NCBI GenBank assembly: GCA_963929525.1
Contig: CAWVJB010000010.1
Coordinates: 1,302 to 65,301, forward strand
Direction: 5' to 3'
DNA: 64,000 nt
Source of the DNA: Bacillota bacterium
Lineage (GTDB): Bacteria; Bacillota; Clostridia; TANB77; CAG-508
Within the stretch, counting starts at the first letter, position 1. Each line of letters begins with the position of its first letter. Position numbers and translations under genes: made by a program. Under the pieces are notes generated by a model. That model did no database searches, was not told where the DNA came from, and worked only from the letters and a program-made list of their open reading frames with translations. Shown here piece after piece: positions 1,748-56,317 of the stretch.

Positions 1748-2032
1748 CTATCCGACTTCTTCATCACTAGAAAGTCTATATTTTATATCATTAATCATAT
1801 CAACTGTAATTCCCTTCATTTTTGCTATTTTGATTAAATAATTTAATTTTGCTTGATTTGCTTTCATTTCATAAATATAATAATCTACTAAATCATCTTG
1901 TGCATACTCAAAATTTTTATCTACATTTTTTAATGCCTTTCGTGTTTTTATAATATTTTTAATCAATTCAATTTCCTTTTCTCTTTCCTCCATATCTTCT
2001 ATAAATGTTTCTTGAACAAAATTATCTTCCAT
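1748..2032 (-). CDS. DUF2508 family protein (YaaL-like)
   Basis: 94-aa helical protein directly upstream of bofA, as in the B. subtilis yaaL-bofA pair. GGGAGG RBS. Confidence 0.6.
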   Translation of the reverse strand: MEDNFVQETFIEDMEEREKEIELIKNIIKTRKALKNVDKNFEYAQDDLVDYYIYEMKANQAKLNYLIKIAKMKGITVDMINDIKYRLSSDEEVG

Positions 2033-2105
2033 AACTTTCCTCCCATTTTTCTTGTTCTAATAGTATATTCAATTATCTTGTTTTTTATACTAACTAAAAT
2101 TACCA

Positions 2106-2213
2106 AAGGTTGCCAAAAGGGACGTGTTAAAATGGCAACTTTAATACAATTTAAAAATTAATTATTTTTATTTATCAAAGTTGCCATTTTAACACGTCCC
2201 TTTTGGCAACCTT
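2106..2213. repeat. Rep-A inverted doublet (REPIN-like)
   Basis: Perfect 36-bp arms, AAGGTTGCCAAAAGGGACGTGTTAAAATGGCAACTT (2106-2141) and its reverse complement (2178-2213), around an AT-rich spacer. Each arm is itself a hairpin (GTTGCCA...TGGCAAC). A second copy lies at 13680-13797. Confidence 0.9.
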
Positions 2214-2317
2214 ACAACTATTAAAATTTAAACAAATTTCACTAAAACCCTTGTTTTTTTCAGTATTTTGTAGGATAATATATATGTATGATTTTAGATT
2301 TTGAAAGGATATTTTAA

Positions 2318-4645: not shown

Positions 4646-4734
4646 AACAATAGAAGGCTTTTTTAAACACTTTTCTGTTCATAACATTTTAAAGCGCGCA
4701 TCATTGTTCAGCACCAAATTTTACGTTATATATA
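4645..4734 (+). repeat. Rep-C module, truncated copy
   Basis: GAACAATAGAAGGC...ACATTTTAAAGCGCGCATCATTGTTCAGCACCAAATTTTAC aligns with the 5' half of the copies at 10380 and 19359. It starts on the stop codon of the preceding gene. Confidence 0.75.
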
Positions 4735-5790: not shown

Positions 5791-6081
5791 TTTTGTCCAA
5801 TTGGGGACGTTTCTGTTTGGGACATTTTTTAATTATTAAATTTTTTAAAAGCTATTGTATTAAATTTTATTCATTACTCGGCTAGCATTGCAGAATAAAT
5901 AAATTCTAAAATTATTAAGCAGGCGCTTCTCAAAGAGAAATTTGAGATTTTCCTACTTAATAATTTTAGAATTTTTAATATTCTTCCATTTGCATTCGTA
6001 ATATCATAAATTTAATACCTTTTTTTAAAAACTGATTTGCATAAAAATGTCCCAAACAGAAACGTCCCCAATTGGACAAAA
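5791..6081. repeat. Rep-B inverted doublet with long structured spacer
   Basis: Arms are TTTTGTCCAATTGGGGACGTTTCTGTTTGGGACATTTTT (5791-5829) and its reverse complement (6043-6081). The spacer contains a further palindrome, AAATTCTAAAATTATTAAG...CTTAATAATTTTAGAATTT. A second copy lies at 56221-56317. Confidence 0.9.
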
Positions 6082-6726
6082 TTATCTTCTTCTATATCTT
6101 CCACAAAAGCAACCTGTTCTCCCATTATTTGCATTATTAGGAACAACATTAATTTTAGTTGTTATTTCATCCCTATTACAAGAACTGTTGCCATTGTTAT
6201 TAACAATTCTGATAACACCATTAATTGTATTAGCTGTATTTATATTATTATTGTTATTACATTCAAAACCATAATTGTTATCATCATTACAACAATAATT
6301 TCTTCCATTGTTATCACTACTAATAGTAAGTAAATTAGTGGTATTTTGATTTGCACCACTACTATTGATTGTCAATAAATCACCATTTGCATTATTCGAG
6401 CAATTACTACTGATTGTTAGTAAATTATTTTCGTTAGTATTATCATTGTTATTACAGCAATAATTTCTTCTACAACCATTATGATTATCATTTTTACCAT
6501 ATCTACATATAAAATCAATAAGCCATGCTGTTATATAACTAATGAATGTATATACCAATGTGGCTACTAAAGCAATCAGATTTCCGATAATAAAAGTAAT
6601 CAGCACACCTATTACAAATATAATACCTGCCACTAATGCTGGACATTTTAAAATTTTTTGTAATGCGATGGAAAATATGATAACGGCTAATGGTATTGCA
6701 AAAAATATGAGTAAAATTGTATTCAT
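6082..6726 (-). CDS. membrane protein with Asn/Cys-rich repetitive C-terminal domain
   Basis: AAGGAG RBS 8 nt before the ATG. Three hydrophobic helices are followed by about 140 aa rich in N and C, with repeats NLLTISS / DLLTINSS / NLLTISSD and RNYCCN twice. No family recognised. Confidence 0.6.
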   Translation of the reverse strand: MNTILLIFFAIPLAVIIFSIALQKILKCPALVAGIIFVIGVLITFIIGNLIALVATLVYTFISYITAWLIDFICRYGKNDNHNGCRRNYCCNNNDNTNENNLLTISSNCSNNANGDLLTINSSGANQNTTNLLTISSDNNGRNYCCNDDNNYGFECNNNNNINTANTINGVIRIVNNNGNSSCNRDEITTKINVVPNNANNGRTGCFCGRYRRR

Positions 6727-10379: not shown

Positions 10380-10560
10380 AAACAATAGCAGATTTTCTTA
10401 AACTTTTTTCTGTTTATAATATTTTAAAGCTAGCATCTTTGTTCGATACCAAATTTTACATTACTAAAATTTGTGTGCAATCGTTAGAGCAAAGCAACGT
10501 TCTTGTATAGGAAAAGCTCAATTTTTCTTTTGAAAATAAAATGTTAAATTTTATTTTCAC
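10380..10560 (+). repeat. Rep-C module, full-length copy
   Basis: AACAATAGC...ATTTTAAAGCTAGCATCTTTGTTCGATACCAAATTTTACATTACTAAAATTTGTGTGCAATCGTTAGAGCAAAGCAACGTT plus terminal hairpins. It aligns with 19359-19516 in the same orientation. Confidence 0.8.
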
Positions 10561-12225: not shown

Positions 12226-13497
12226 ATGGAAAATCATGATGATGAAAATAAAATAAACCATGAAAACAAATCAACTTTTAAAACTGTTTCAAATCCAGAT
12301 AATTATAAAACTGTTTATGAAATCAACAATACATCAAAAACAAAATCAAACTTTGGAAAAAATGTTTTATTACCATTTTTTAGTGGAGTAGTTGGATGTG
12401 CAGTTGTACTAGGTACTTGTTTTAGTATCCCAGCAATTAAAAATCAAATCTTAGGAAATTCTAATACTTCTAATTTTTCTACAAATACACAAACAACAGG
12501 ATATGTGGATCAAGTTTCCCTATCTAATTATTCAGATACAGCTGTTTATGCAGCCAACAAAATTTTACCATCAATTGTTGGTATCCAAATCGAATATAAT
12601 GTAACTTCCATGTTTTCTATTTTTGGTGGAAGTCAAACATCTACTGCTACTGCAACAGGTTCAGGTATTATCATTAGTGACGATGGATATATTTTAACAA
12701 ATAATCATGTTGTTTCTTCTAGTGAGGCAGAAGCATATTATCAAGTATCTGAAGCTACAAAAATTACTGTTACTTTATTTAATGATGAAAAACAATATGA
12801 GGCAAAAATTGTTGGTACTGATGAAGAAACTGATTTAGCCGTTATAAAAATTGAAGCAACTGGTTTAACAAAAGCTGAATTTGCAGACTCAGATTCTATC
12901 AAAGTAGGTGAATTTGCAATGGCTGTTGGTAGCCCTTTGGGTTTACAAAGTACAATTACTTGTGGTGTTGTTAGTGCTGTAAACAGAGAAGTGACAGATA
13001 CAGATGGAAAAACATATACTTTAATTCAAACTGATGCAGCAATCAATGCTGGTAACAGTGGTGGTGCTTTAGTAAATAGTGAAGGAAAAGTAATAGGTGT
13101 AAATACATTAAAATTAACTGGTAATGATGTCGAAGGTATGGGATTTGCTATACCAATCAATTCCACAACAGATATAACTTCGCAATTAATTCAATATAGT
13201 AAAGTAAGAAGACCTTATATCGGTGTTACAGGAATGGATTTAGATGCTGAAACTGCTAAGAAAAATAATTTAGTAGAAGGTATCTATGTAAAAGATATTG
13301 AAACATTTTCAGCCGCTGAAAAAGGTGGAATAAAAATTGGAGATGTCATTATAAAAGCAGATGGAAAAGATATTAAAACAATGGATGAATTAAATGAAAT
13401 CAAAAATTCTCATAATATTGGTGACCAAATGACAATTACAGTTAATAGAGAAGGAGAAGAAAAAGAATTAACCATTACTTTAGGCGAACAACCTTAG
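12226..13497 (+). CDS. HtrA/DegP-like S1C serine protease with PDZ domain, membrane anchored
   Basis: Catalytic motifs TNNHVV, DLAVIK and GNSGGALVN, with a C-terminal PDZ-like segment. Confidence 0.85.
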   Translation: MENHDDENKINHENKSTFKTVSNPDNYKTVYEINNTSKTKSNFGKNVLLPFFSGVVGCAVVLGTCFSIPAIKNQILGNSNTSNFSTNTQTTGYVDQVSLSNYSDTAVYAANKILPSIVGIQIEYNVTSMFSIFGGSQTSTATATGSGIIISDDGYILTNNHVVSSSEAEAYYQVSEATKITVTLFNDEKQYEAKIVGTDEETDLAVIKIEATGLTKAEFADSDSIKVGEFAMAVGSPLGLQSTITCGVVSAVNREVTDTDGKTYTLIQTDAAINAGNSGGALVNSEGKVIGVNTLKLTGNDVEGMGFAIPINSTTDITSQLIQYSKVRRPYIGVTGMDLDAETAKKNNLVEGIYVKDIETFSAAEKGGIKIGDVIIKADGKDIKTMDELNEIKNSHNIGDQMTITVNREGEEKELTITLGEQP

Positions 13498-13672: not shown

Positions 13673-13679
13673 TCAAAAA

Positions 13680-13797
13680 AAGGTTGCCAAAGGGGACGTG
13701 TTAAAATGGCAACTTGTTAAATAATAAAATCAAGTATTTATATAATATAAAATAAATAAAAAAGTTGCCATTTTAACACGTCCCCTTTGGCAACCTT
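13680..13797. repeat. Rep-A inverted doublet, second copy
   Basis: Arms AAGGTTGCCAAAGGGGACGTGTTAAAATGGCAACTT (13680-13715) and its reverse complement (13762-13797). Confidence 0.9.
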
Positions 13798-13806
13798 TTT
13801 ACTCAA

Positions 13807-14664
13807 CTATATAATTACTAAATCCATTTCAGTTGTTAGCTCTTCATTTCCATAGGCATATATAATATAAATATTTCCATCTTTTACAAAAAACTCTTGC
13901 GAATTTTTTATTTTATACATATCATTTTCTGGATTTCTCTCAAAAATTTTATACCCTAAACTTCTTAAATCTTCCACTCTTTTATACTCTATCTGTATTT
14001 CCTCATCTATTTTATTTTGTACTTCTACTAAATTTAATTGCTTTAAATTTAAAAATTCCTCTAATGTGATTTCTTTATGATTTCTTAAATCATAATTAAA
14101 AGTTTGAATAATTAATCTTTGTGCATTGGCACCTTCTTTTAAATTTACTTTAATAATTAAAGACAGTATATCATTTTCTATTGTAGCCTCATATTGAAGT
14201 GTATAAATAATATTTTCATTTTCTGTTTGCAATATTTCTTCTGATTTTTCTTCATATGTTTGTTTGATTTCTTCATTATATGTTGCTATTGTTTCATTAT
14301 CAATATTAATATATGGAATATTTAAATTCATATCATAGCTATTTTTCTTGTTTTCATCTTTTGTATAGTATGTATACACCAAATCTTGTGCTCCATCTAT
14401 TTTTTTTATATAAATATCTGTGTTATATTCTTCTAAATGATTTTGAAATAGATTGTCAAAATTTGATTCTAATAGTTGATACTCTTCATCTTTTTTCGTT
14501 AAACTTGATCCGCCTATTGTGATTAATCTATCTAGTTCATCACTTCCATAATAGATTGACAATCCTATAATAATAATAGCTATAACACAAGTAATGATGG
14601 AACTTGTGTATATAATAACAGCTTTTGCACTGATTTTCTCCTTCTTTGGTAAATTTATTTTCAT
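13807..14664 (-). CDS. membrane-anchored hypothetical protein
   Basis: AAGAGG RBS before the Met at 14664 (MKINLPKK). One TM helix is followed by an extracytoplasmic domain. The listed ORF extends to 14727. Confidence 0.55.
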   Translation of the reverse strand: MKINLPKKEKISAKAVIIYTSSIITCVIAIIIIGLSIYYGSDELDRLITIGGSSLTKKDEEYQLLESNFDNLFQNHLEEYNTDIYIKKIDGAQDLVYTYYTKDENKKNSYDMNLNIPYINIDNETIATYNEEIKQTYEEKSEEILQTENENIIYTLQYEATIENDILSLIIKVNLKEGANAQRLIIQTFNYDLRNHKEITLEEFLNLKQLNLVEVQNKIDEEIQIEYKRVEDLRSLGYKIFERNPENDMYKIKNSQEFFVKDGNIYIIYAYGNEELTTEMDLVII

Positions 14665-14812
14665 ATAAAAACCTCTTACACTATACTCTAATCTCATTAT
14701 AGCATTTCTATATAAATATTTCAACATGAATATGACTAAATTTATTGACTATTCGTGGAATTTGGGGTATGATATATATTGTATATTTATATAGAAATGA
14801 GGAGTTTAAAGT

Positions 14813-18513: not shown

Positions 18514-18658
18514 TTTCTTACATTCCTTTCCAAAGATTAAATTGATTTAAAGTCCTTATAATTATCAATTTTACCTTTTCTCACCTTTTATAGTATTATT
18601 TACCTTTTTTTCTCCTTTATACATTTTTGTGTATTTTTAACAATAAAGACACAAAAAA

Positions 18659-18691
18659 AGTTGCCAAAATGGCACGTCCCTTTTGGCAACA
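18659..18691. repeat. collapsed Rep-A remnant
   Basis: AAGTTGCCAAAATGGCACGTCCCTTTTGGCAAC keeps the GTTGCCAAAA / TTTTGGCAAC stem and the ACGTCCC core. Confidence 0.6.
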
Positions 18692-19358: not shown

Positions 19359-19516
19359 GAACAATAGCGGGCTTTTTTTAATATTTTCTCTGCTCTTAAC
19401 ATTTTAAAGCCCGCGTTATTGTTCGGCGCCAAATTTTGCATTAGTAAAATTTGTGTGCAATCGTTAGAGCGAAGCGACGTTGTTGAATAGGAAAAACTCG
19501 ATTTTTCCTATTCAAC
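19359..19516 (+). repeat. Rep-C module, full-length and best-preserved copy
   Basis: Four successive hairpins: GAACAATAGCGGGC-loop-GCCCGCGTTATTGTTC, then CAAATTTT-8-AAAATTTG, then CAATCGT...ACGTTG, then TTGAATAGGAAAAA-4-TTTTTCCTATTCAA. Confidence 0.85.
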
Positions 19517-19523
19517 AACAATA

Positions 19524-19765
19524 GTTACAATTTACAGCCCAATAAAGGACAGGGAAAGGTTATGTTATTCTATATTGAATGAATTTCGAATGTGATTGGA
19601 ATACTTGTAGCCTTTCTTAATTTAAAACAAATGAGGAAGCGGGAATAGCGAGAGGCTCGTTTATTTTAGATTTAGAAAGGCTAAAGTATGCATTGAGCCG
19701 AGAAATTTATGAAATATAGAATAACATAACCTTTCCCTGTCCTTTATTGGGCTGTGAATTGTAAC
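19524..19765. mobile_element. MITE-D copy A (242 bp, about 52-bp terminal inverted repeats)
   Basis: The TIR is GTTACAATTTACAGCCCAATAAAGGACAGGGAAAGGTTATGTTATTCTATAT paired with its reverse complement. A nested inner hairpin is present. Flanking AACAATA occurs on both sides (19517-19523 and 19767-19773). Confidence 0.8.
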
Positions 19766-27266: not shown

Positions 27267-27487
27267 ACAACTAACCCTTACATGTATTGTTATAATTTTG
27301 AAACACCGCGTAAGCAACCAAACGAGCAATAGCGAGTGAGATTGGAGCAACCTTCACACATTGAAAAGTAAATTTTTAAATAGAATTAAATTTATTTAAG
27401 ACTATATAAAAATTTATCTTTCAACATAAGTGGTTGCTTTCGCACTAGGTGTTTCAAAATCATAACAATACATGTAAGGGTTAGTTG
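27267..27487. repeat. Pal-E long palindromic element (221 bp)
   Basis: The termini are CAACTAACCCTTACATGTATTGTTATAATTTTGAAACACC and its reverse complement. The interior pairs almost throughout, apart from a one-sided bulge containing GAGCAATAGCGAGTGAG. Confidence 0.8.
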
Positions 27488-28135: not shown

Positions 28136-28294
28136 AATAAATTTTAAACTTACTTTTGGAATTCTTTTTGATATTAAAATATATGATAAAAATTAGACTA
28201 AAATATATAAATTAAAATTATGTATATTAAATCACAAAAATGTAAAAAATTCAAGTATTTTCTATCGACAATTTGTCGACATTTGAAATTATCG

Positions 28295-28527
28295 GTTACA
28301 ATTCAGACCTAAGTAATCTTCCAGGGGTGATATGTTATATTTTTAAGCGTTCGAATGCGACCAGAATAGTTTTACAAATTCTTAGGATAAAAGCACAAAG
28401 GGTTCTGTTTCCAGGTATTGTTGTGTTTTTATTCTTAGAATTTGTTAAACGGGAATTGGCAGGTAGCCGAGATCCTTAAAAATATAACATATCACCCCTG
28501 GAAGATTACTTAGGTCTGAATTATAAC
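28295..28527. mobile_element. MITE-D copy C (233 bp)
   Basis: The TIR is GTTACAATTCAGACCTAAGTAATCTTCCAGGGGTGATATGTTATATTTTTAAG paired with its reverse complement. The 8-bp direct repeat AAATTATC flanks it (28286-28293 and 28528-28535). Confidence 0.85.
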
Positions 28528-28592
28528 AAATTATCTGTAAAAGATGCTATTTCACTTCTTTCAATTGAAATAGCATCTTTTTCTTTTATATG

Positions 28593-47100: not shown

Positions 47101-50100
47101 CAATTTTTTCAAAATCTTCATCATCTTGCTCACCTTCAAAGTATTCTTCACTACTAGTTAGATCTTTTTCACTATTATTTTCATTTCCTATGTAACCATT
47201 ATCTGTTGAAATCAAATCATCTTTTGTAACATTTGGTTTTGTCCCTGGCTCAGAGTCTGTATCTGCATGCTCTTGAGTAGTGATTGTTATATCATCTTCT
47301 TCATCATATGCTTCTGATATCCAAGCCACATTTGTTAATATTTGATTTGTACTTCCTGCTTCTGCTGTAACGGTACATTCTATTTGTATTGTAATAGAAT
47401 CTAATACTTCTCCACTAAATGCTTGTAATAAATAGTCATTATTTGGTAATTCTGCATTTAAAGTTGCATCTATTAATTTTAATTTTAATAGATTATCTGT
47501 TTCTGAATAACTTTCTACTTCATAATATTCAGATATCAATCTTTCAAATTTTAGACCAGTTGGTAATTGATCTTCAATTTTTGTAGCCATTCCAGCTTTG
47601 GCTCCTTCATTATATATCGTTAGATTATATATAATTTTATCACCAGTATTGACAATGATTGGATTTTTTTTATGTTTGTATATAGCTGTTGTTACATTTC
47701 CATAGTTATTAGCTAATTCACTTATATCAATATTAGGAATTCTATTGGTAATATCTATATCTCCCACTTTGGTAATATATTTTCTTAAACTTAAATCAAA
47801 TGGTAAATGTATATTTGTAATGATATAATTATTTTCTGCACCTGCTAAGATTGCCGTTTCTCCATTCGTATCATTTGTACTATTTTGTGCTGGACTTTGT
47901 TCAGAAATGCTTCCTGCTATTGGATAATATCCTTGTGGCACATTTACCTCTACCACTGTATATTCAATATCCACTCCATTTTCTTTTACTGGTAAATTAT
48001 CAAAAGTTACTGTCCATGCAGGTCCTGTTAATGTTTTGATTTCTCCTGTTGCACTTCCATTCTTATATAGCTCAAATTGTACACTTTCTGGTCTTAATCC
48101 ATCTCGGTTATCAAAATCATACCACTCTTTTTTTGCAGTAATACTGGTTACTGTTGGTGTATGTGTATTAGTAATGGTAAAGTTATTGTTACTATTTTCT
48201 ACTTTATTTGTTGTATATCCTTCTGGCACACTAACTTCATCTACAGTATATTCAATTTCTTGTCCATTTTCATATTTTGCTAATCCTGTAAATATATAAC
48301 TCCAATTATTATTAGCATCTAATGTTACTGTTTGAAGAGTTTGCGTTCCTTTCTTTAAGGCAATCTGTATAGTTGTTGGTCTTATACCATCTTGATTATG
48401 ATTATCTGACCAAATTTTATTAACACTAACATTAATCGTTGCTGGTGTATGAGAATTTGTAATTGTATAACTTTTTCCTGTACTATCTGTCGTGGCATTT
48501 GTATTTGTTGTATAACCACTAATACTTGTCGTTTCTTTCACACTATATATAACTGTTTGTCCATTTTCTTTTATTGGTAAATTTTCGAATTTTCCTGACC
48601 ACCCATTTGCTTCGTTTAATGTCATTGTTTGACCTGTTGATTGTTCATTTTTTAATAATTCAACTGTAATTTCAGTTGCTCGAATGCCGTCTTGATTATT
48701 ATTGTCTTCCCAAACTTTACTAACTTCTACACTGGTCACTGCTCTTACAACTACTTTTTCAAAATCATCATCATCTTGTTGACCTTCAAAATAACTTTCT
48801 GAATTCATCAAATCTTTTCCTTGATTATGATCATTTCCAATATAACCATCATCTGTTGTAACTAAATCCTCTTTTGTTTGTGTAGTAATCGTTGAAGGTT
48901 CTGAATCCCTATCATCTCCCAGATTACTTGTAATAACTGTTCCATCTTCATCTATTTCTTCTGCTATCCAGGCAATATTCGTTAATATTTGATCAGACTC
49001 TCCTCCTGTTGCCGTTACTCTACATTTTATTTGAATCGTTTCAGAACTTACATTTCCTTTTTCATATGCTGATAAGTTTGTTGTGTTATTGACTTTCCTT
49101 GTTAAATAGATGGTATTGGTTTGCTCGTCATATGTTTGTACTTCAAAATTTCCACTAACTACTTCTACAAACTCCAATCCAGTTGGTAATTGATCTACAA
49201 TTTCTGTTGCTCTTCCTGCTTTTTCACCTTCATTGTATATAGTCATATTATAAGTAATGATATCATTATTTTTTACTTCTACTGGATCTTTTCTGTGTGT
49301 ATATGTAGCAGTTGTTCCATTTTCTAATGTACTTTCGTCTATGACAGGAACTCTACTACTTGTTAATGCTTCATCATTGATTGCTGTAATATATTTTCTG
49401 AATGATAAGTCAAATGTTCTTGGCACTTTATATACTTCCATAATTGGTTGTGCCTCTGCATCTTGATTAGAAGCATATACAGTTAATATGGTTTTTTCGT
49501 CATTTATACCTTTACTTGCATTGTTTCTAGCTGTATCAATTAAATACTGATACAATTTTACCATTTGTTGCTGTCTAAAGTATCCTGCTGTTGCACTTGT
49601 ATATGGGAAATTTGTTGGATTGTATGATGAAAAATTTTTATATTCCCCTTTTTCTTCACCATCTGTATACCAAATCCAGCTAGTTTCACCATATTTATCA
49701 TATCTTCCATTTTCTTCATAATTTGTAAAATACCATATTGCTGCCTGCTGGATAGCATCTATTTCATCATCTGTTATATAATATTCTGGTACTCCATTAA
49801 AATCACTCTTTTCAACTATATCATTTGCTCCAGAATCATCTAATAATTGTTGTCTTTCTGCTTGTGTAGATACCCCTTTTACATAAAGAAGATCTGCCAA
49901 TGCTAATAAATTTTCATATTGACCATCATTTACAAGATGATTTAATATATCATTTTGTGCAGCAATTTCTGTTTTCTCTGTTTTCATATTATAGCTTACA
50001 TCATATGTATCTGTTGAACCTGCACCTGCAAACCCCGTATTTGCTTTTATACAATATGCACTTACTTCTGTAGGATCATTATAACTGGTATTACTATATT

Positions 50101-50299
50101 GTACAATTTTCCAGATTTTTTCTGCGCCAGAATCTGGATCTCCCATAGCATATCCCATATTTGTTGTTGTTCTTATCTCTGCTATTCCAAAATACAATTT
50201 TTCACTCATTGGCGTAGCTTGTACTGTCTGATTTAGAAAAGCTGATATGAAACATACTATAAATATAATGAGAATAAATAAAATTTTTCTACTTTTCAT
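44144..50299 (-). CDS. 2051-aa surface adhesin: signal peptide, thioester domain, DUF11-type repeats, six Cna-B-type domains, hydrophobic C-terminal anchor
   Basis: Thioester signatures are SAYCIKAN (Cys83, 50053-50051) and IQQAAIWYFTN. The FDLSLRKYIT...IYNEGEKAG...DQLPTGL modules are DUF11-like. VSKVWEDNNNQDGIRA-type Cna-B repeats occur six times, in two blocks of three. The C-terminus is LLAVETGQERIYYILGFTVLGTLAGGLILIKKFVI. Confidence 0.85.
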   Translation of the reverse strand: MKSRKILFILIIFIVCFISAFLNQTVQATPMSEKLYFGIAEIRTTTNMGYAMGDPDSGAEKIWKIVQYSNTSYNDPTEVSAYCIKANTGFAGAGSTDTYDVSYNMKTEKTEIAAQNDILNHLVNDGQYENLLALADLLYVKGVSTQAERQQLLDDSGANDIVEKSDFNGVPEYYITDDEIDAIQQAAIWYFTNYEENGRYDKYGETSWIWYTDGEEKGEYKNFSSYNPTNFPYTSATAGYFRQQQMVKLYQYLIDTARNNASKGINDEKTILTVYASNQDAEAQPIMEVYKVPRTFDLSFRKYITAINDEALTSSRVPVIDESTLENGTTATYTHRKDPVEVKNNDIITYNMTIYNEGEKAGRATEIVDQLPTGLEFVEVVSGNFEVQTYDEQTNTIYLTRKVNNTTNLSAYEKGNVSSETIQIKCRVTATGGESDQILTNIAWIAEEIDEDGTVITSNLGDDRDSEPSTITTQTKEDLVTTDDGYIGNDHNQGKDLMNSESYFEGQQDDDDFEKVVVRAVTSVEVSKVWEDNNNQDGIRATEITVELLKNEQSTGQTMTLNEANGWSGKFENLPIKENGQTVIYSVKETTSISGYTTNTNATTDSTGKSYTITNSHTPATINVSVNKIWSDNHNQDGIRPTTIQIALKKGTQTLQTVTLDANNNWSYIFTGLAKYENGQEIEYTVDEVSVPEGYTTNKVENSNNNFTITNTHTPTVTSITAKKEWYDFDNRDGLRPESVQFELYKNGSATGEIKTLTGPAWTVTFDNLPVKENGVDIEYTVVEVNVPQGYYPIAGSISEQSPAQNSTNDTNGETAILAGAENNYIITNIHLPFDLSLRKYITKVGDIDITNRIPNIDISELANNYGNVTTAIYKHKKNPIIVNTGDKIIYNLTIYNEGAKAGMATKIEDQLPTGLKFERLISEYYEVESYSETDNLLKLKLIDATLNAELPNNDYLLQAFSGEVLDSITIQIECTVTAEAGSTNQILTNVAWISEAYDEEDDITITTQEHADTDSEPGTKPNVTKDDLISTDNGYIGNENNSEKDLTSSEEYFEGEQDDEDFEKIVVEAKTQITVTKQWEDNNDQDRKRPGEITLTLYAGEEATEHTASVSKNGNTWTYTFSNLPKYADGEEIVYTVRETVPDGYTASDEGIADSANNYTITNSYTPETTQIVVTKKWEDNDNQDGIRPPEIQVELIKNGEETGNTVTLNEGNNWAGTFENLAVNENGEKITYTIKEITVDGYAVLITQNSENNFTITNTHTPGTTSVTVNKVWNDKDNQDGLRPDSIQVQLIGTIENDDGTTITVVDKNITITKDEGWIGTFNDLPVNEDGQEIIYTVREMTQIDGYTSEVRENTESTNNTEDTENIASTDEVKTTTVTYNARSMVRATSKNIEPKNFTITNTHIVEEEFDLALRKFMIAISKDETIEESDILRNEDGSGYAREPVVDASKLNTLDEDGNTITTAIYHHTKEPVLVKKSDIIVYMLRVYNEGEQDGYAAEITDYLPPYLTFVDGEFNEQYGWKISENGRMVTTRYLENSVIAKPETDVNGNHTLSYVEVPIMCRVSDSASTNQNITNLADITEYQDKDKQPVEDRDSKEENVEIPTDEELPSYKDEEIKNPYVPGQEDDDDFEKVIIKNFDLSLRKFITKVDEEEVTTRVPEVSYHREEEKLTYNHTKDPVEVVTGNVVEYMIRVYNEGDMAGYAQEVTDDIPNGLKFLPENATNIEYRWVMYDAEGNVTENSEEAVEIKTDYLSKEQEETEGENLLQAFKQEEEIGEGNPDYRDIKVAFEVVEPNESDRIIINSAQITDDSDENGNPVEDIDSIPDEWNEGEDDQDKEYIKLTYFDLSLRKWVTEAIVVEDGKEAVTQTGHTAEMDPEPVVKVELYRKDTNHVTVKFRYKIRITNEGDIAGYAKDITDYIPEGLKFVAEDNPEWTDKGNNIISTKQLENTLLQPGETADVEVLLTWINGEDTMGVMTNIAEISEDDNEKGAPDKDSTPDNQVTGEDDIDDASVLLAVETGQERIYYILGFTVLGTLAGGLILIKKFVI

Positions 50300-50533
50300 A
50301 TACCTCTCTTCCTCTCTTTTCTATATAATATCATTATATTTCATTTTTTTTTATTTTCAATATGCTTTTTGCTTGAAATATTTACCTACTTTTTTTCGAG
50401 CTTTTTCTATTTACGGATACAGACAATCTACATATTTTGATATTTATTACAATTTTATTTCTTTTTGATAACATTTTCGTTTAATAAAATACAACGTTAC
50501 AATAGGAAAGAATGTCTTTCCTATTGTATGAAA

Positions 50534-50559
50534 AATAGGACATGTTTTCATGTCCTATT
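50534..50559 (-). terminator. Rho-independent terminator after the 1189-aa adhesin gene
   Basis: AATAGGACATG-4-CATGTCCTATT, followed on the minus strand by TTTTTC. A second hairpin lies at 50499-50527. Confidence 0.6.
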
Positions 50560-50598
50560 TAGAAGTCCATTTGAATTTAATTAAAATGAATCCTATCC

Positions 50599-53500
50599 CT
50601 AGATAACAAACTTCTTAATTAAAATTAATCCTCCTGCTAATGTTCCTAATACTGTAAATCCTAATACATAGTAAATTCTCTCTTGTCCTGTTTCCACTGC
50701 TAATAATACTGGTGCATCATCTATGTCATCTTCTCCTGGTACTTGATTATCTGGTGTTGAATCTCTATCTGGTGCTCCTTTTTCATTATCATCTTCTGAT
50801 ATTTCTGCTATATTTGTCATCTCTCCCATCGTGTCTTCTCCATTTATCCAGGTTAACAATACTTCTACCTCTGCTGTTTCTCCTGGTTGTAATAATGTAT
50901 TTTCCAATTGTCTTGTTGAGATGATATTGTTTCCTTCATCTGTCCATTCTGGATTATCCTCTGCTACAAATTTTAAACCTTCTGGTACATAATCTGTTAT
51001 CTCTTTTGCATATCCTGCAATATCTCCCTCATTTGTGATTCTGATTTTATATCTGAATTTCACAATTACATCATTGATATCTTTTCTATATAACTCTACT
51101 TTTACAACTGGCTCTGGATCCATCTCTGCTGTATGTCCTGTTTGAGTTATTGTTTCTTTTCCATCTTCTATCACAATTGCTTCTGTTACCCATTTTCTTA
51201 ATGCTAAATCAAAATAGGTCAATTTAATATATTCTTTATCTTGGTCATCTTCTCCTTCGTTCCATTCATCTGGTATAGAATCTATATCTTCTACTGGATT
51301 TCCATCCTCATCACTATCATCTGTAATTTGTGCTGAATTGACAATAATTCTATCTGATTCATTTGGTTCTACTACTTCAAAAGCTACTTTGATATCTCTA
51401 TAGTCTGGATTTCCTTCTCCAATGGCTTCTTCTGGGTTAAATGCTTGTAATAAGTTTGGATTTTCTGTTTCTTCTCCATTTTCTTCTGTAGTTCCTTCTT
51501 GTATATCTTGCGTTGTATCTCCTACTGTTGTTTCTTCCTCATTTAGTCTAGTTTCTCCTTGTTCTTTTGATAAGTAATCTGTTCTGATTTCTACTGCTTC
51601 TTCTACGTTGTCTGTTACATTTCCTTCTGCATCATACATAACCCATCTATACTCTATGTTTGTTGCATTTTCTGGTAAAAACTTTAATCCATCTGGTATA
51701 TCATCTGCTACTTCTTCTGCATAACCTGCAATATCTCCTTCATTATATACTCTAATCGTATATTCAACTACATTTCCTGTTACAACTTCTACTGGTTCTT
51801 TTGTATGATTGTATGTGATTTTTTCCTCTTCTCTTTGATAACTTACTTCTGGTATTCTTGTTGTAACTTCTTCTTCATTTACTTTTGTGATAAATTTTCT
51901 TAATGCTAAGTCAAAGTCTTGGATAATCACATTATCATAATCTTCATCATCTTCATATTTTACCCATTCTTCTGGTTTTGAATCTCTATCATCTACTGGG
52001 TTTCCTTCACTATCGGCATCTTCTGTGATAGCTGCTTCATTTCTAATAATTCCAATACTTGGATCATCTGTTACTACTTTAAAGATAACAGCTATTTCTT
52101 TATAGTCTGGATTTTTTTCTGTTTCTGTATCAGAATAAGGACTGTTTGGATCAAATGCTTTTATTAAATTGGCTCCTGGTGTTGTAATTTCTTCTCCTTT
52201 TCCTCTTCCTAAATAATCTGTTTTAATTTTGGTTGTATCACCTTCCACATAAGTCCATCCCATTGATGTATTAAATTCTACTGCAGCTAATTCTTCTTCA
52301 TCTGTAATTGGATTCATATTAGAATCTACTTCTGCACCAAGAAATTCTAAACCTTTTGGAATATCTTCAGTAATTTCTTCTGCATAACCATCTATTTCTC
52401 CCTCATTGTAAATTCTAAATGTATAAGTGATTAAATCTCCTGTTTGTACTGAAACTGGTTCTTTATTCATTTGATAATCTGCTGTTGTTTGTGTTCCATT
52501 CGCTAAGTTTGTAATATCAACACCTAATAATCTTTCTGGAATGTTTTCTCCATTTACTCCAGTAATTCTTTTAATTAATTTTAAGTCAAATTCTTTTTCT
52601 TCTGGAACATTAACAACTACTTTTTCAAAATCATCATCATCTTGCTCTCCTTCATAGAAATAATCTGAATCTCCTAAATCATCTTTGTTTTCTGTATTTC
52701 CTCGATAATCTTCCATGTTATCTTTATTGACATCTGGTGTTGTTCCTGGCTCTGAATCTCTATCTTCTCCTACTTCATCAATAACATTTCCATATTCATC
52801 TATTTCTTCTGCTATCCATGCAACATTTGTTAATATTTTTCCATTTTCACTTGCATCTACTATACATTCAATCTCTATTGTTTCTGAATCTAATTGTCCT
52901 TGTTGATATGCTGTTAAATTTTCTGTATTACTTTCTTCTCTGGTGATAGTTACTCTGTTTGTCTCTTCATCATATTGTGCTGTAAATCCTTCTGTTATGA
53001 TTTGTGAATATGTTAATCCACTTGGTAGTTGATCTATAATTTGTGTAGCTCTTCCGTCTACTTCGCCTTCATTATAGATGGTGATATGATATGTCACCTT
53101 ATCTCCATTTTCTACCATTACTGGATCTTTTCTATGCTGATATGTAGCTGTTGTTCCATTTTCTAATGTACTTTCATCTATGACTGGTACTCTCGTATTG
53201 GTAACAGGTTCTCCATTGATTTCTGTTATATATTTCCTTAAAGCTAAATCAAATTCTTGTGGTATTTTTTCTACTTTCATTAATGGTTGTGAATTTCCTG
53301 TTGCTGTCGTATATAATGTTAATTGATTTCTATGTTTTACATTAGGATCTTCATAATTTGCTGCTTGCTCTTTTGCTTCATCTATTAAATATTGATATAA
53401 TTTTACAGCTTGTTCTCTTCTTACAAATCCTACTGCTGGTGTTTTATCTGTTCCATATGATGATAATGGTTCATATTGTGTTCCATCTTCTGTATAATAT

Positions 53501-54478: not shown

Positions 54479-55756
54479 ATGAAACAATTTAAATTTTTTT
54501 ATAAAATCATGTTTTTATTTTTCCTAACACTATTTATCAGCAAATCTGTTTTGGCAGATGATTTACTCCCTATTGAAGATGATTTTGACATTTCAGAAAT
54601 AATGAATGTAGATAGTCTAGAAACCAATAGTAATCCTATACAAATGCCTACAATAAATTCTAGAGCCTATGTCGTAATTGATAGAAAGTCAAACACAATA
54701 CTTGTAGGAAAAAACGAAAATCAAAAGAAAAAAATGGCTTCTACCACGAAAATTATGACAGCACTTATTGTTATTGAACATACCAATTTATCTGATACTG
54801 TTGAAATTTCTAAAAAAGCAGCTAATACAGGTGGTTCTCGACTTGGCTTAAAAACTGGTGACAAAATAACCGTTTCTGATTTATTATATGGTCTTATGAT
54901 GCGTTCTGGTAATGATGCTGCTGTCGCTTTAGCAGAACATGTAGCAGGTTCTATTACTGATTTTGCTAACTTAATGAATGAAAAAGCCATCTCATTAGGA
55001 CTTTCTAATACGCATTTTGTTACACCTCATGGATTAGATGAAGATGAACATTATACTACTGCCTATGAATTAGCTTTACTTTCAAATTATGCTATGAATA
55101 ATGAAATTTTTGCCAAAATAGTTGGAACAAAAAATTATACGATTACAATTAATGGATATCCAAAAACACTGACAAATACGAATGAACTATTAGGAGCCTT
55201 AAATGGCGTTTATGGCATAAAAACTGGATTTACAAATGGTGCCAATCGATGTTTAGTCACATGTTGTAAGAGAAGCAATATGGATATAATTTGTGTAGTC
55301 CTTGGTGCTGATACAAAAAAATATCGAACAACTGATAGTATCAAATTGATTGAGTATGCTTTTCAAAATTTTACATGTGTCAATATTGAAGAAATCTTTT
55401 CTAATTATTTTGAAATTTGGAAAAAAGAAAACCTTCAAAATATCACTATCACTAAAGGAGTTTCAAATTATTTAGATATAACATTTGAGGAACTTCCCTA
55501 TTCTTCTATTCCTATAAGAAATGATTTAGTTGATAAGCTCCATGTATATATAAACTATGAATCTGTTTTAAAAGCTCCTATTACAAAAGGAACTTCTATT
55601 GGAAATATGACTTTAGAATTAGAAGGAAAAATAATCCATAGTAGTAATTTGTTTATCAATACAGAAATTGCGCACAAAAATACTTTTGATTACTTATATT
55701 ATTTTTATCAAAACTTATCAACAATTTTCAATACGATTCTTCAAATGGAACGATAG
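54479..55756 (+). CDS. serine-type D-Ala-D-Ala carboxypeptidase (peptidase S11, PBP5 family)
   Basis: Signal peptide and the motifs SxxK (ASTTKIM), SGN (RSGNDAA) and KTG (IKTGFT). Confidence 0.85.
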   Translation: MKQFKFFYKIMFLFFLTLFISKSVLADDLLPIEDDFDISEIMNVDSLETNSNPIQMPTINSRAYVVIDRKSNTILVGKNENQKKKMASTTKIMTALIVIEHTNLSDTVEISKKAANTGGSRLGLKTGDKITVSDLLYGLMMRSGNDAAVALAEHVAGSITDFANLMNEKAISLGLSNTHFVTPHGLDEDEHYTTAYELALLSNYAMNNEIFAKIVGTKNYTITINGYPKTLTNTNELLGALNGVYGIKTGFTNGANRCLVTCCKRSNMDIICVVLGADTKKYRTTDSIKLIEYAFQNFTCVNIEEIFSNYFEIWKKENLQNITITKGVSNYLDITFEELPYSSIPIRNDLVDKLHVYINYESVLKAPITKGTSIGNMTLELEGKIIHSSNLFINTEIAHKNTFDYLYYFYQNLSTIFNTILQMER

Positions 55757-55800
55757 GGACGTACCAAATCATTCCATTTCTTGTATTCTTGTATAGGAAA

Positions 55801-55832
55801 AACGGAACGATTTGGCGTCCCTATCGTTCCGT
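55801..55832. terminator. bidirectional terminator between convergent genes
   Basis: Perfect 11-bp stem AACGGAACGAT-10-ATCGTTCCGTT with T-rich runs on both strands. It overlaps a longer imperfect palindrome, GGGACGTACCAAATC...GATTTGGCGTCCC. Confidence 0.6.
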
Positions 55833-56220: not shown

Positions 56221-56317
56221 TTTTGTCCAATTGGGGACGTTTCTATTTGGGACATTTTCAATGCTTAATATATTATTTTCAAAAAATGTCCCAAATAAAA
56301 ACGTCCCCAATTGGACA
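56221..56317. repeat. Rep-B inverted doublet, compact copy
   Basis: TTTTGTCCAATTGGGGACGTTTCTATTTGGGACATTTT and its reverse complement, with a 23-bp spacer. It abuts the plsX stop codon. Confidence 0.9.

Follow-up and report, generated by a model that had tools for sequence, protein, structure and literature searches.

A GGGACG-loop hairpin repeat system with two candidate RAYT-type partner genes in an uncultured Clostridia genome

The inverted hairpin doublets of the Rep-A and Rep-B families are best explained as REP/REPIN-type non-autonomous elements whose partners are two RAYT-type HUH transposases encoded elsewhere in the same genome. Likened by published description, the enzymes would belong to TnpA-REP class 2 and resemble the TIRYT or subclass-2.1 proteins; we place the probability of this reading as a whole at roughly 85%. 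REP and REPIN–RAYT systems are textbook material for Proteobacteria. The genome considered here is a 1.88-Mb assembly (G000; 106 contigs, 27.8% GC), and the titles of related records give uncultured gut Clostridia or Bacillota MAGs. The window, by which we mean the whole 64,000-nucleotide stretch analysed, covers positions 1302–65301 of its contig C10.

Hairpin families in the window and across the genome

The hexamer GGGACG occurs 13 times in the window where dinucleotide shuffles predict 1.37, none of 100 shuffles reaches 13, and 12 of the 13 motifs fall inside the hairpin units listed below. An inverted-repeat search of the window recovers all named copies as inverted pairs (I3, I4, I7–I12 and I15). 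An Rfam search of the window returns one tRNA and nothing else, so that the hairpins are unexplained by any described RNA family.

2106–2213: Rep-A doublet (REPIN-like), units 2106–2141 (+) and 2178–2213 (-), between divergently transcribed genes
5791–6081: long Rep-B element, terminal units at about 5793–5828 (+) and about 6046–6081 (-), internal palindrome at 5901–5974
13677–13800: Rep-A doublet, units 13680–13715 (+) and 13762–13797 (-), fold z -15.6
18657–18691, minus strand: single intact Rep-A unit of the commonest subtype, GTTGCCAAAAGGGACGTGCCATTTTGGCAAC (C10 19976, minus)
55747–55830: family-E doublet, units 55747–55775 (+) and 55803–55830 (-), fold z -6.4
56221–56317: short Rep-B doublet, units 56223–56258 (+) and 56283–56317 (-), fold -35 kcal/mol, z -11.9
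57970–58004, minus strand: single family-D unit, TTCGGGATTTT-GGGGACGGACTC-AAAAATCCCGAA

The first-pass annotation of this DNA had named both Rep-B doublets, and they are found at its coordinates as inverted pairs; its two Rep-A doublets also stand, the second widened from 13680–13797. Two of its labels do not. The supposed Rep-A remnant at 18659–18691 is an intact unit of the commonest subtype, and the palindrome at 55756–55821, described as part of a terminator, does carry the shared core but is really a doublet of a separate family, E.

The elements crowd the ends of genes. The end of the long Rep-B element is 3 nt away from the stop of a minus-strand gene (6082–6726), and the short Rep-B doublet adjoins the stop codon of the minus-strand gene at 56318–57376. 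The second Rep-A doublet lies just 3′ of the intrinsic terminator of gene 12226–13497 and 10 nt from the stop of gene 13807–14727 (minus strand), and the family-D singleton is 20 nt downstream of the stop of gene 58025–59227 (minus strand). Gene 54479–55756 takes its final two codons and its TAG stop from the 5′ stem of the first family-E unit, GGAACGATAG at 55747–55756.

Throughout the genome GGGACG is present 338 times (about 71 expected) and GGGGACG 245 times (about 10 expected). Some 290 (289) of the 338 hexamers belong to five families with one layout: a stem of 7–9 bp, a loop of about 13 nt that opens with RGGGACG and the second stem arm. The families are:

Family A: GTTGCCAAA-GGGGACGTGCCAT-TTTGGCAAC; about 64 units, 57 by strict regex
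Family B: TGTCC(TTTT/AATT)GGGGACGTTTCTGTTTGGGACA; about 119 units, 104 by strict regex
Family C: GATGATTTT-GGGGACGGAGCAA-AAAATCATC; 74 strict units, 106 together with family D
Family D: AAGGGAATTT-GGGGACGGACTC-ATTTTTCCCTT; 15 strict units, included in the 106 above
Family E: GGAACGAT-AGGGACGTGTCAA-ATCGTTCC; at least 12 strict (regex) units

The copies first noticed in the window are thus members of families of high copy number. Indeed, the most abundant 16-mer repeats of the genome are those of Rep-B (97 copies), Rep-C (67) and Rep-A (55). The loop similarity that was first seen between Rep-A and Rep-B persists genome-wide with one correction: the invariant core is GGGACG rather than GGGACGT, with G as the next base in families C and D and T in the other three.

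Between 84 and 100% of the A–D units lie wholly outside ORFs of at least 100 aa, though such ORFs make up 83% of the genome. Units that appear intragenic are nearly all upstream of the real start codon, within stop-to-stop frames, and only the one in tilS is truly internal. Adjacent pairs are nearly all convergent (+/-), with 22 of 22 in family A, 25 of 25 in C and 24 of 28 in B, and the doublets are of uniform size (100–113 bp for A, 104–114 bp for C). Sequence variants match between the two arms in 19/22, 20/24 and 18/25 doublets, compared with 2–5 in shuffles. Conservation ends at the outer edges of the units: information content falls to about 0 within 1–3 nt, and the flanks show no conserved target sequence outside the units.

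The idea that each unit is itself a hairpin holds well for Rep-A and poorly for Rep-B. In DNA folding, units of families A, C and E are strong (z -3.3 to -4.5), D is moderate and B is weak; lone Rep-B units fold at -2.5 and -3.2 kcal/mol (z -0.35 and -2.3), and since the major Rep-B variants have a 5-bp stem only, Rep-B acts more like a terminal inverted repeat. Whole doublets fold into long hairpins (z -6 to -16), as exemplified by the Rep-A doublet at 2106–2213, which forms a single long DNA hairpin of -47.4 kcal/mol (z -14.6). The long form of Rep-B, with an interior of about 210 bp that contains its own palindrome, had been taken as a sign that doublets can carry cargo. The interior is real, but it is not captured DNA: its 160–200 bp are 76–90% identical in at least four other copies (C44, C21, C31 and C18), and the long form is therefore a recurrent composite subfamily of about 287 bp.

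Several other repeats and sequence features were seen along the way. The outer Rep-B end (…CCAAAAGGACAAAATG) often adjoins a start codon, giving an AAGGA Shine–Dalgarno-like box; an example on contig C4 (L001 892–910) lies upstream of an ORF starting MAKSKTIFVCSECG, which we take to be a RadA-like N-terminus. Other abundant 16-mers are unrelated to the GGGACG families, namely TAGAATTTCTTAAATG and TTCGATTCCCATTTAA at about 50 copies each and TTTTTAAGAATTCGAA at 44, and may represent some other dispersed family or a CRISPR repeat. Also in the window are a direct repeat of 83–150 nt (D15/D16), unrelated to the GGGACG hairpins, in three copies (4646–4728, 10381–10463 and 19361–19443), as well as further long inverted repeats (I1, I2 and I5, at 19524–19765, 27268–27487 and 28288–28534), some of which end in GTTACAATTCAG. 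On the minus strand, positions 44100–53300 form a large, internally repeated coding block with periods of about 290, 620–710 and 6455 bp, which may encode repetitive surface proteins.

Two RAYT-type genes framed by their own hairpins

A search of the whole genome with the Pfam Y1_Tnp model (PF01797) finds exactly two genes, scoring 59 and 43 bits and free of internal stops. Both encode 256 aa, and the proteins are 32% identical to each other. The gene on contig C4 (RAYT-B) is framed by Rep-B units, at L001 898–937 and 972–1008 (+) on one side and 1992–2030 (-) on the other; the gene on contig C15 (RAYT-A) is framed by inverted Rep-A units at L002 875–905 (+) and 1946–1977 (-). The organization of REP doublets mobilized by RAYT-type transposases, proposed from the doublets alone, therefore has its counterpart in two Y1 genes, each flanked by one family. 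Because the framing units belong to the gene's own family and are convergent like those of the dispersed doublets, a doublet resembles a RAYT element without its gene. Searches with 51 RAYT queries turned up no further RAYT genes or fragments, for instance ones that might serve families C, D and E, and the 106-contig assembly thus contains no RAYT for these families (about 100 units).

The assignment of the two proteins to the RAYT group draws on both sequence and fold. The HUH and class-2 Y---NP motifs are HVH (NNHVHLVV) and YIHQNP (RYIHQNP) in RAYT-B, and HTH (DNHTHIVV) and YIHDNP (DYIHDNP) in RAYT-A; residues H60, H62, Y119, N123 and P124 are invariant among 25 homologues. The NCBIfam REP_Tyr_transpos model (NF047646) matches at 60–62 bits, which is under the model's 80-bit cut-off, and the IS200 model (NF033573) at 15–22 bits. 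A profile built from the 25 sequences has a sole significant match in the PDB, the E. coli TnpA-REP structure 4ER8 (E = 8e-4), with the HUH and Y motifs aligned; the profile was needed, as a single-sequence phmmer search of RAYT-B against the PDB returned nothing at E ≤ 1. The AF2 model (pLDDT 92) gives 4er8_A as the best Foldseek match (E = 8e-7, TM 0.68 on the target), followed by the IS608, ISDra2 and IS200 transposases. In both sequence and fold, the proteins are thus nearer to RAYT than to IS200 TnpA. The C-terminal half of the 256-aa proteins is helical and confidently modelled; HTH_23 matches this region in 5 of 25 homologues and HTH_28 in 2 of 25, with no significant HTH match in RAYT-A and RAYT-B themselves. 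RAYT-B is under purifying selection, judged from a dN/dS of 0.14–0.20 against four orthologues.

The association between gene and hairpin extends well beyond this genome. Orthologues of RAYT-B in other uncultured Clostridia (96–53% identity) are flanked by the Rep-B unit or a relative of it, and in one at 71% identity both stem arms have changed (TGTCTCA...TGAGACA) while the loop GGGGACGTTTCT is kept. Among 61 genus genomes, 47 have between one and six RAYT-like genes. Inverted hairpins that have a stem of their own and a GGGAC(G/A) loop flank the gene at about 25 of the 30 genus loci fetched, and reversed motifs are almost never seen there, so the loop similarity also survives in this larger set of homologous gene flanks. 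In more distant Bacillota, too, inverted hairpins frame RAYT homologues; their stems differ but the loop is again GGGAC(G/A), and the GGGAC core is kept beside homologues down to about 31% identity. Hairpins of the family-E type frame RAYT genes in three genomes (G006, G058 and G068).

The RAYTs of the Rep-B type all have GGGACGTTTC and group in a single supported clade of a maximum-likelihood tree, and RAYT-A falls across the deepest split; the 3′ tails of the loops are clade-specific. It had been suggested that the loop motif common to Rep-A and Rep-B implies one recognizing protein. This is correct at the level of a protein family, but Rep-A and Rep-B have their own paralogues, and the 3′ part of the loop tracks the RAYT clades.

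The number of TGGGGACG motifs also follows the gene. Of 14 genus genomes without a RAYT, 13 have fewer than 20 (median 2, background), compared with at least 20 in 25 of the 46 that have one (median 27); the difference gives Fisher p = 0.002, a statistic that is overstated because related genomes are not independent. The roughly half of RAYT-positive genomes with few motifs include some that use GGGACA loops, which the count leaves out.

The RAYT-A gene lies between dnaB and tilS, and the same dnaB–RAYT–tilS order is found in six further genus genomes, with the wider neighbourhood dnaB–RAYT–tilS–ftsH conserved in all seven (L123–L128 and L133). Identities across these loci are 83–91% for DnaB, 36–51% for RAYT and 44–56% for TilS. 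The 3′ Rep-A unit of this gene (L002 875–905, equal to C15:3208–3238, outside the window) is in frame inside tilS and is translated as …SGGPDSMCLLEILRKLKQE-SCQNGTSPLAT-FDFVVAHVNH…. In five of the six other species (making six with G000), TilS carries a REP-derived insertion of its own at this position; the tilS fragment from G036 is too short to judge. The conserved gene order together with the TilS insertions points to long vertical residence, as has been described for RAYTs (PMC5581495). Because it lies inside tilS, the 3′ Rep-A flank may be a conserved relic and not an active end.

Occupied and empty sites, and other explanations for the hairpins

Comparison with congeners reveals empty sites at all three loci tested. 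The Rep-A doublet at 13677–13800 is cleanly absent in G010 and G018, the one at 2106–2213 is absent in G012, G001 and G014, and in G006 the place of the long Rep-B element (5791–6081) is taken by an ordinary terminator. In G010 the site corresponding to window 2100–2215 (L115, G010:C85) contains a short Rep-B-like doublet instead of Rep-A, which suggests that the same intergenic spot has been used repeatedly. Copy-number variation between strains had been put forward as a check; both Rep-A doublets compared between assemblies of the species are fixed, with no insertion polymorphism seen at either. The doublet at 2106–2213 is identical in nine of ten other assemblies, the tenth (L166) having five substitutions in the right-hand unit; the doublet at 13677–13800 is complete in one other assembly (L153). 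In other assemblies, several short contigs break off within the unit. The evidence consists of presence and absence between species and includes no observed event, so movement is documented at that level only. A Logan contig (SRR34436984_90628, L158) joins gene 13807–14727 to the spacer of another Rep-A doublet copy (C97:91368) and is probably an assembly chimera through the repeat.

The alternative that survives best is that the hairpins are host-selected elements (terminators, mRNA stabilizers, protein-binding sites or uptake-signal-like sequences) spread by recombination or selection, with the Y1 genes merely among them or using them in some other way. Such a role would fit the many copies that immediately follow stop codons or closely precede start codons, the unit that supplies a stop codon, the in-frame unit kept inside tilS in six species and the fixation of doublets within the species, and RAYTs are widely viewed as domesticated (PMC5581495). 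It does not account for the congener sites that are empty, with ordinary terminators doing the job there, or for the occupation of one site by different families in different species. Motif counts at background in genus members lacking a RAYT gene, and the framing of every RAYT paralogue by its own stem type, also argue against host selection as the source of the repeats, and a secondary function is in any case compatible with RAYT-driven spread. We therefore regard this explanation as improbable. If the elements are REP/REPIN-type, as we favor, secondary effects are likely: the many copies near stop and start codons can act as terminators or mRNA hairpins.

Could the doublets be ordinary MITEs that arose by deletion from a DDE-type insertion sequence, with GGGACG present in its terminal inverted repeats by chance? 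Rep-B, with its weak unit hairpin and its recurrent composite form of about 287 bp, does look like a pair of such repeats. However, there are no target-site duplications at the A, B and C doublets, where direct repeats of at least 3 bp occur in 0–9% of cases, the same as in shuffles. No DDE gene framed by these ends was found, as opposed to two framed Y1 genes, and in dozens of other genomes this core likewise frames Y1 genes. An origin of this kind is very hard to reconcile with these results, and we give it little weight. A chance or compositional origin of GGGACG in otherwise unrelated families can be dismissed almost entirely: the core is short (6–7 nt), but its excess over expectation, its concentration in five families of the same layout with a 13-nt loop, reverse-pattern controls at background and its conservation beside RAYT homologues to about 31% identity leave next to no room for coincidence.

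Relation to known systems and a proposed mechanism

Two questions arise in placing the REP/REPIN–RAYT reading among described systems: (i) which known type do the genes and hairpins most resemble and (ii) where do they depart from it. A literature search (REP, Clostridia, tyrosine transposase) retrieved no paper describing REP populations in Clostridia. The REP catalogue of Di Nocera et al. (2013, PMC3733652) spans eight phyla and includes no Firmicutes; that study also described TIRYT genes (TIR-associated tyrosine transposases, of elements named TIRtrons) framed by inverted repeats with a GGGGWSAS box, some of these repeats being moderately abundant families. Quentin et al. (2018, PMC6006769) found Y---NP to be common to all TnpA-REP, consider TIRYT probably the same as their subclass 2.1 and describe that subclass as the second most widespread of the TnpA-REP subclasses, consisting of long proteins with a C-terminal HTH domain of unexplained role and without REP-like structures beside the genes. 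In the classification of Bertels et al. (2017, PMC5581495), Group 1 is the only RAYT group that reaches Clostridia, and its association with 16-mers is weak (12 occurrences).

For the first question, the closest likeness is to TIRYT and subclass 2.1. Shared features are a long class-2 Y1 protein (about 256 aa), whose helical C-terminal half may be the HTH-like extension (Bac_DnaA_C, HTH_23 or HTH_28) of that subclass, HTH matches being found in homologues only, and inverted repeats with a G-rich box that frame the gene and are also dispersed as singletons, dimers and clusters. The presence of two genes with two cognate families in one genome parallels S. maltophilia K279a, which has two TIRYT genes and two repeat families (PMC3733652). 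The TIRYT box, GGGG[AT][CG]A[CG], matches the GGGGACG(T/G) found here at six of eight positions, and GGGGACAG of relatives fits it exactly. These features, in a Clostridia host, amount to a known kind of system, REP/REPIN–RAYT of the TIRYT type, in a new host group.

The differences from TIRYT and subclass 2.1 are that position 7 of the box is G and not A, that the host belongs to the Bacillota (Clostridia), that families A, C and E present the box in a well-formed hairpin loop, no REP-like structure being reported beside subclass-2.1 genes (PMC6006769), and that the copy number is high, with more than 260 units in 1.9 Mb and three extra families without a gene. The copy numbers also set this genome apart from RAYT Group 1, with 55–97 copies of the leading 16-mers here against 12 occurrences there. 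Well-formed hairpins, high copy number and a box placed in the loop characterize the system in this host.

The REPIN–RAYT systems of Pseudomonas and Enterobacteria (Bertels and Rainey 2011, PMC3116915; PMC5581495) share with the present one the inverted doublets of short palindromic units that form one long hairpin, their extragenic location and identical arms, and also a single-copy RAYT framed by its own units (families A and B only) at a syntenic, vertically inherited locus under purifying selection. They differ in the RAYT group and in the tag, which in those systems is GTAG at the stem's 5′ foot and here is GGGACG in the loop. The E. coli REPtron (TnpA-REP with REP/BIME; 4ER8, PMC3479197; Corneloup et al. 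2021, PMC8266576) provides the best profile and fold match, with HUH and Y---NP motifs, inverted hairpins around the gene and co-evolution of RAYT and REP. However, E. coli TnpA-REP is only about 16% identical over the core, has 165 aa and lacks the C-terminal HTH domain; its REPs combine a bulged stem with a small loop, and their GTAG precedes the stem on the 5′ side.

The GTAG and CGTC REP superfamilies are defined by an unpaired tag at the end of a 5–13 bp stem with a small loop (PMC3733652). Here GTAG is missing, and GACG/CGTC is located within the roughly 13-nt loop instead of at the stem foot; we rejected the CGTC superfamily because tag position and loop size differ. The IS200/IS605 elements (IS608 and ISDra2) share the HUH/Y1 fold, the lack of target duplications and, by analogy, a presumed recognition of single-stranded hairpins. 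Their end hairpins are both on the same strand and their gene is multi-copy, in contrast to the inverted ends, single-copy genes and IS200 model scores of 15–22 bits here.

How the enzymes would read and cut these hairpins is modelled on E. coli TnpA-REP and IS608 (PMC3479197, PMC8266576). On single-stranded DNA, such as the lagging-strand template, a unit or a whole doublet would fold so that the roughly 13-nt loop displays RGGGACG on its 5′ side. The RAYT would then bind the folded DNA, cut it by means of its catalytic tyrosine and rejoin it elsewhere. By the same analogy, the stem and the 3′ part of the loop may set the specificity for each RAYT paralogue, and the invariant GGGAC(G/A) may serve as a family-wide tag, the equivalent of GTAG in Proteobacteria and of GGGGWSAS in TIRYT systems. 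Families C, D and E could be relics of lost RAYTs, or they could be moved in trans via the shared loop. The loop box is common to all families, and the two RAYTs might on that account keep the orphan families, about 100 units, mobile in trans; of its 13 positions the family-E loop shares 9–10 with the Rep-A loop, the GTGCC variant reaching 10.

A more specific proposal can be put together from these elements, and we offer it tentatively, as something that may well prove wrong in one or another of its parts. RAYTs of the subclass-2.1/TIRYT type would read the loop heptamer RGGGACG, with stem and loop tail conferring paralogue specificity; the two RAYTs would keep C, D and E mobile in trans; and the RAYT-A copy would have stayed locked in the dnaB–tilS interval from a time before the genus diversified, one REP end being translated in TilS. 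Reading of a loop heptamer would differ from the recognition of GTAG at the stem foot that was solved for E. coli TnpA-REP.

The repeats have practical consequences for work on this gut lineage. They are the main cause of contig breaks in its assemblies, and their overlap with stop codons and their proximity to start codons and terminators matter for annotation. For the RAYT family, the genome supplies two clean candidate enzyme–substrate pairs and three orphan substrates with one loop box, so that recognition, the cut site and cross-family action are testable in vitro.
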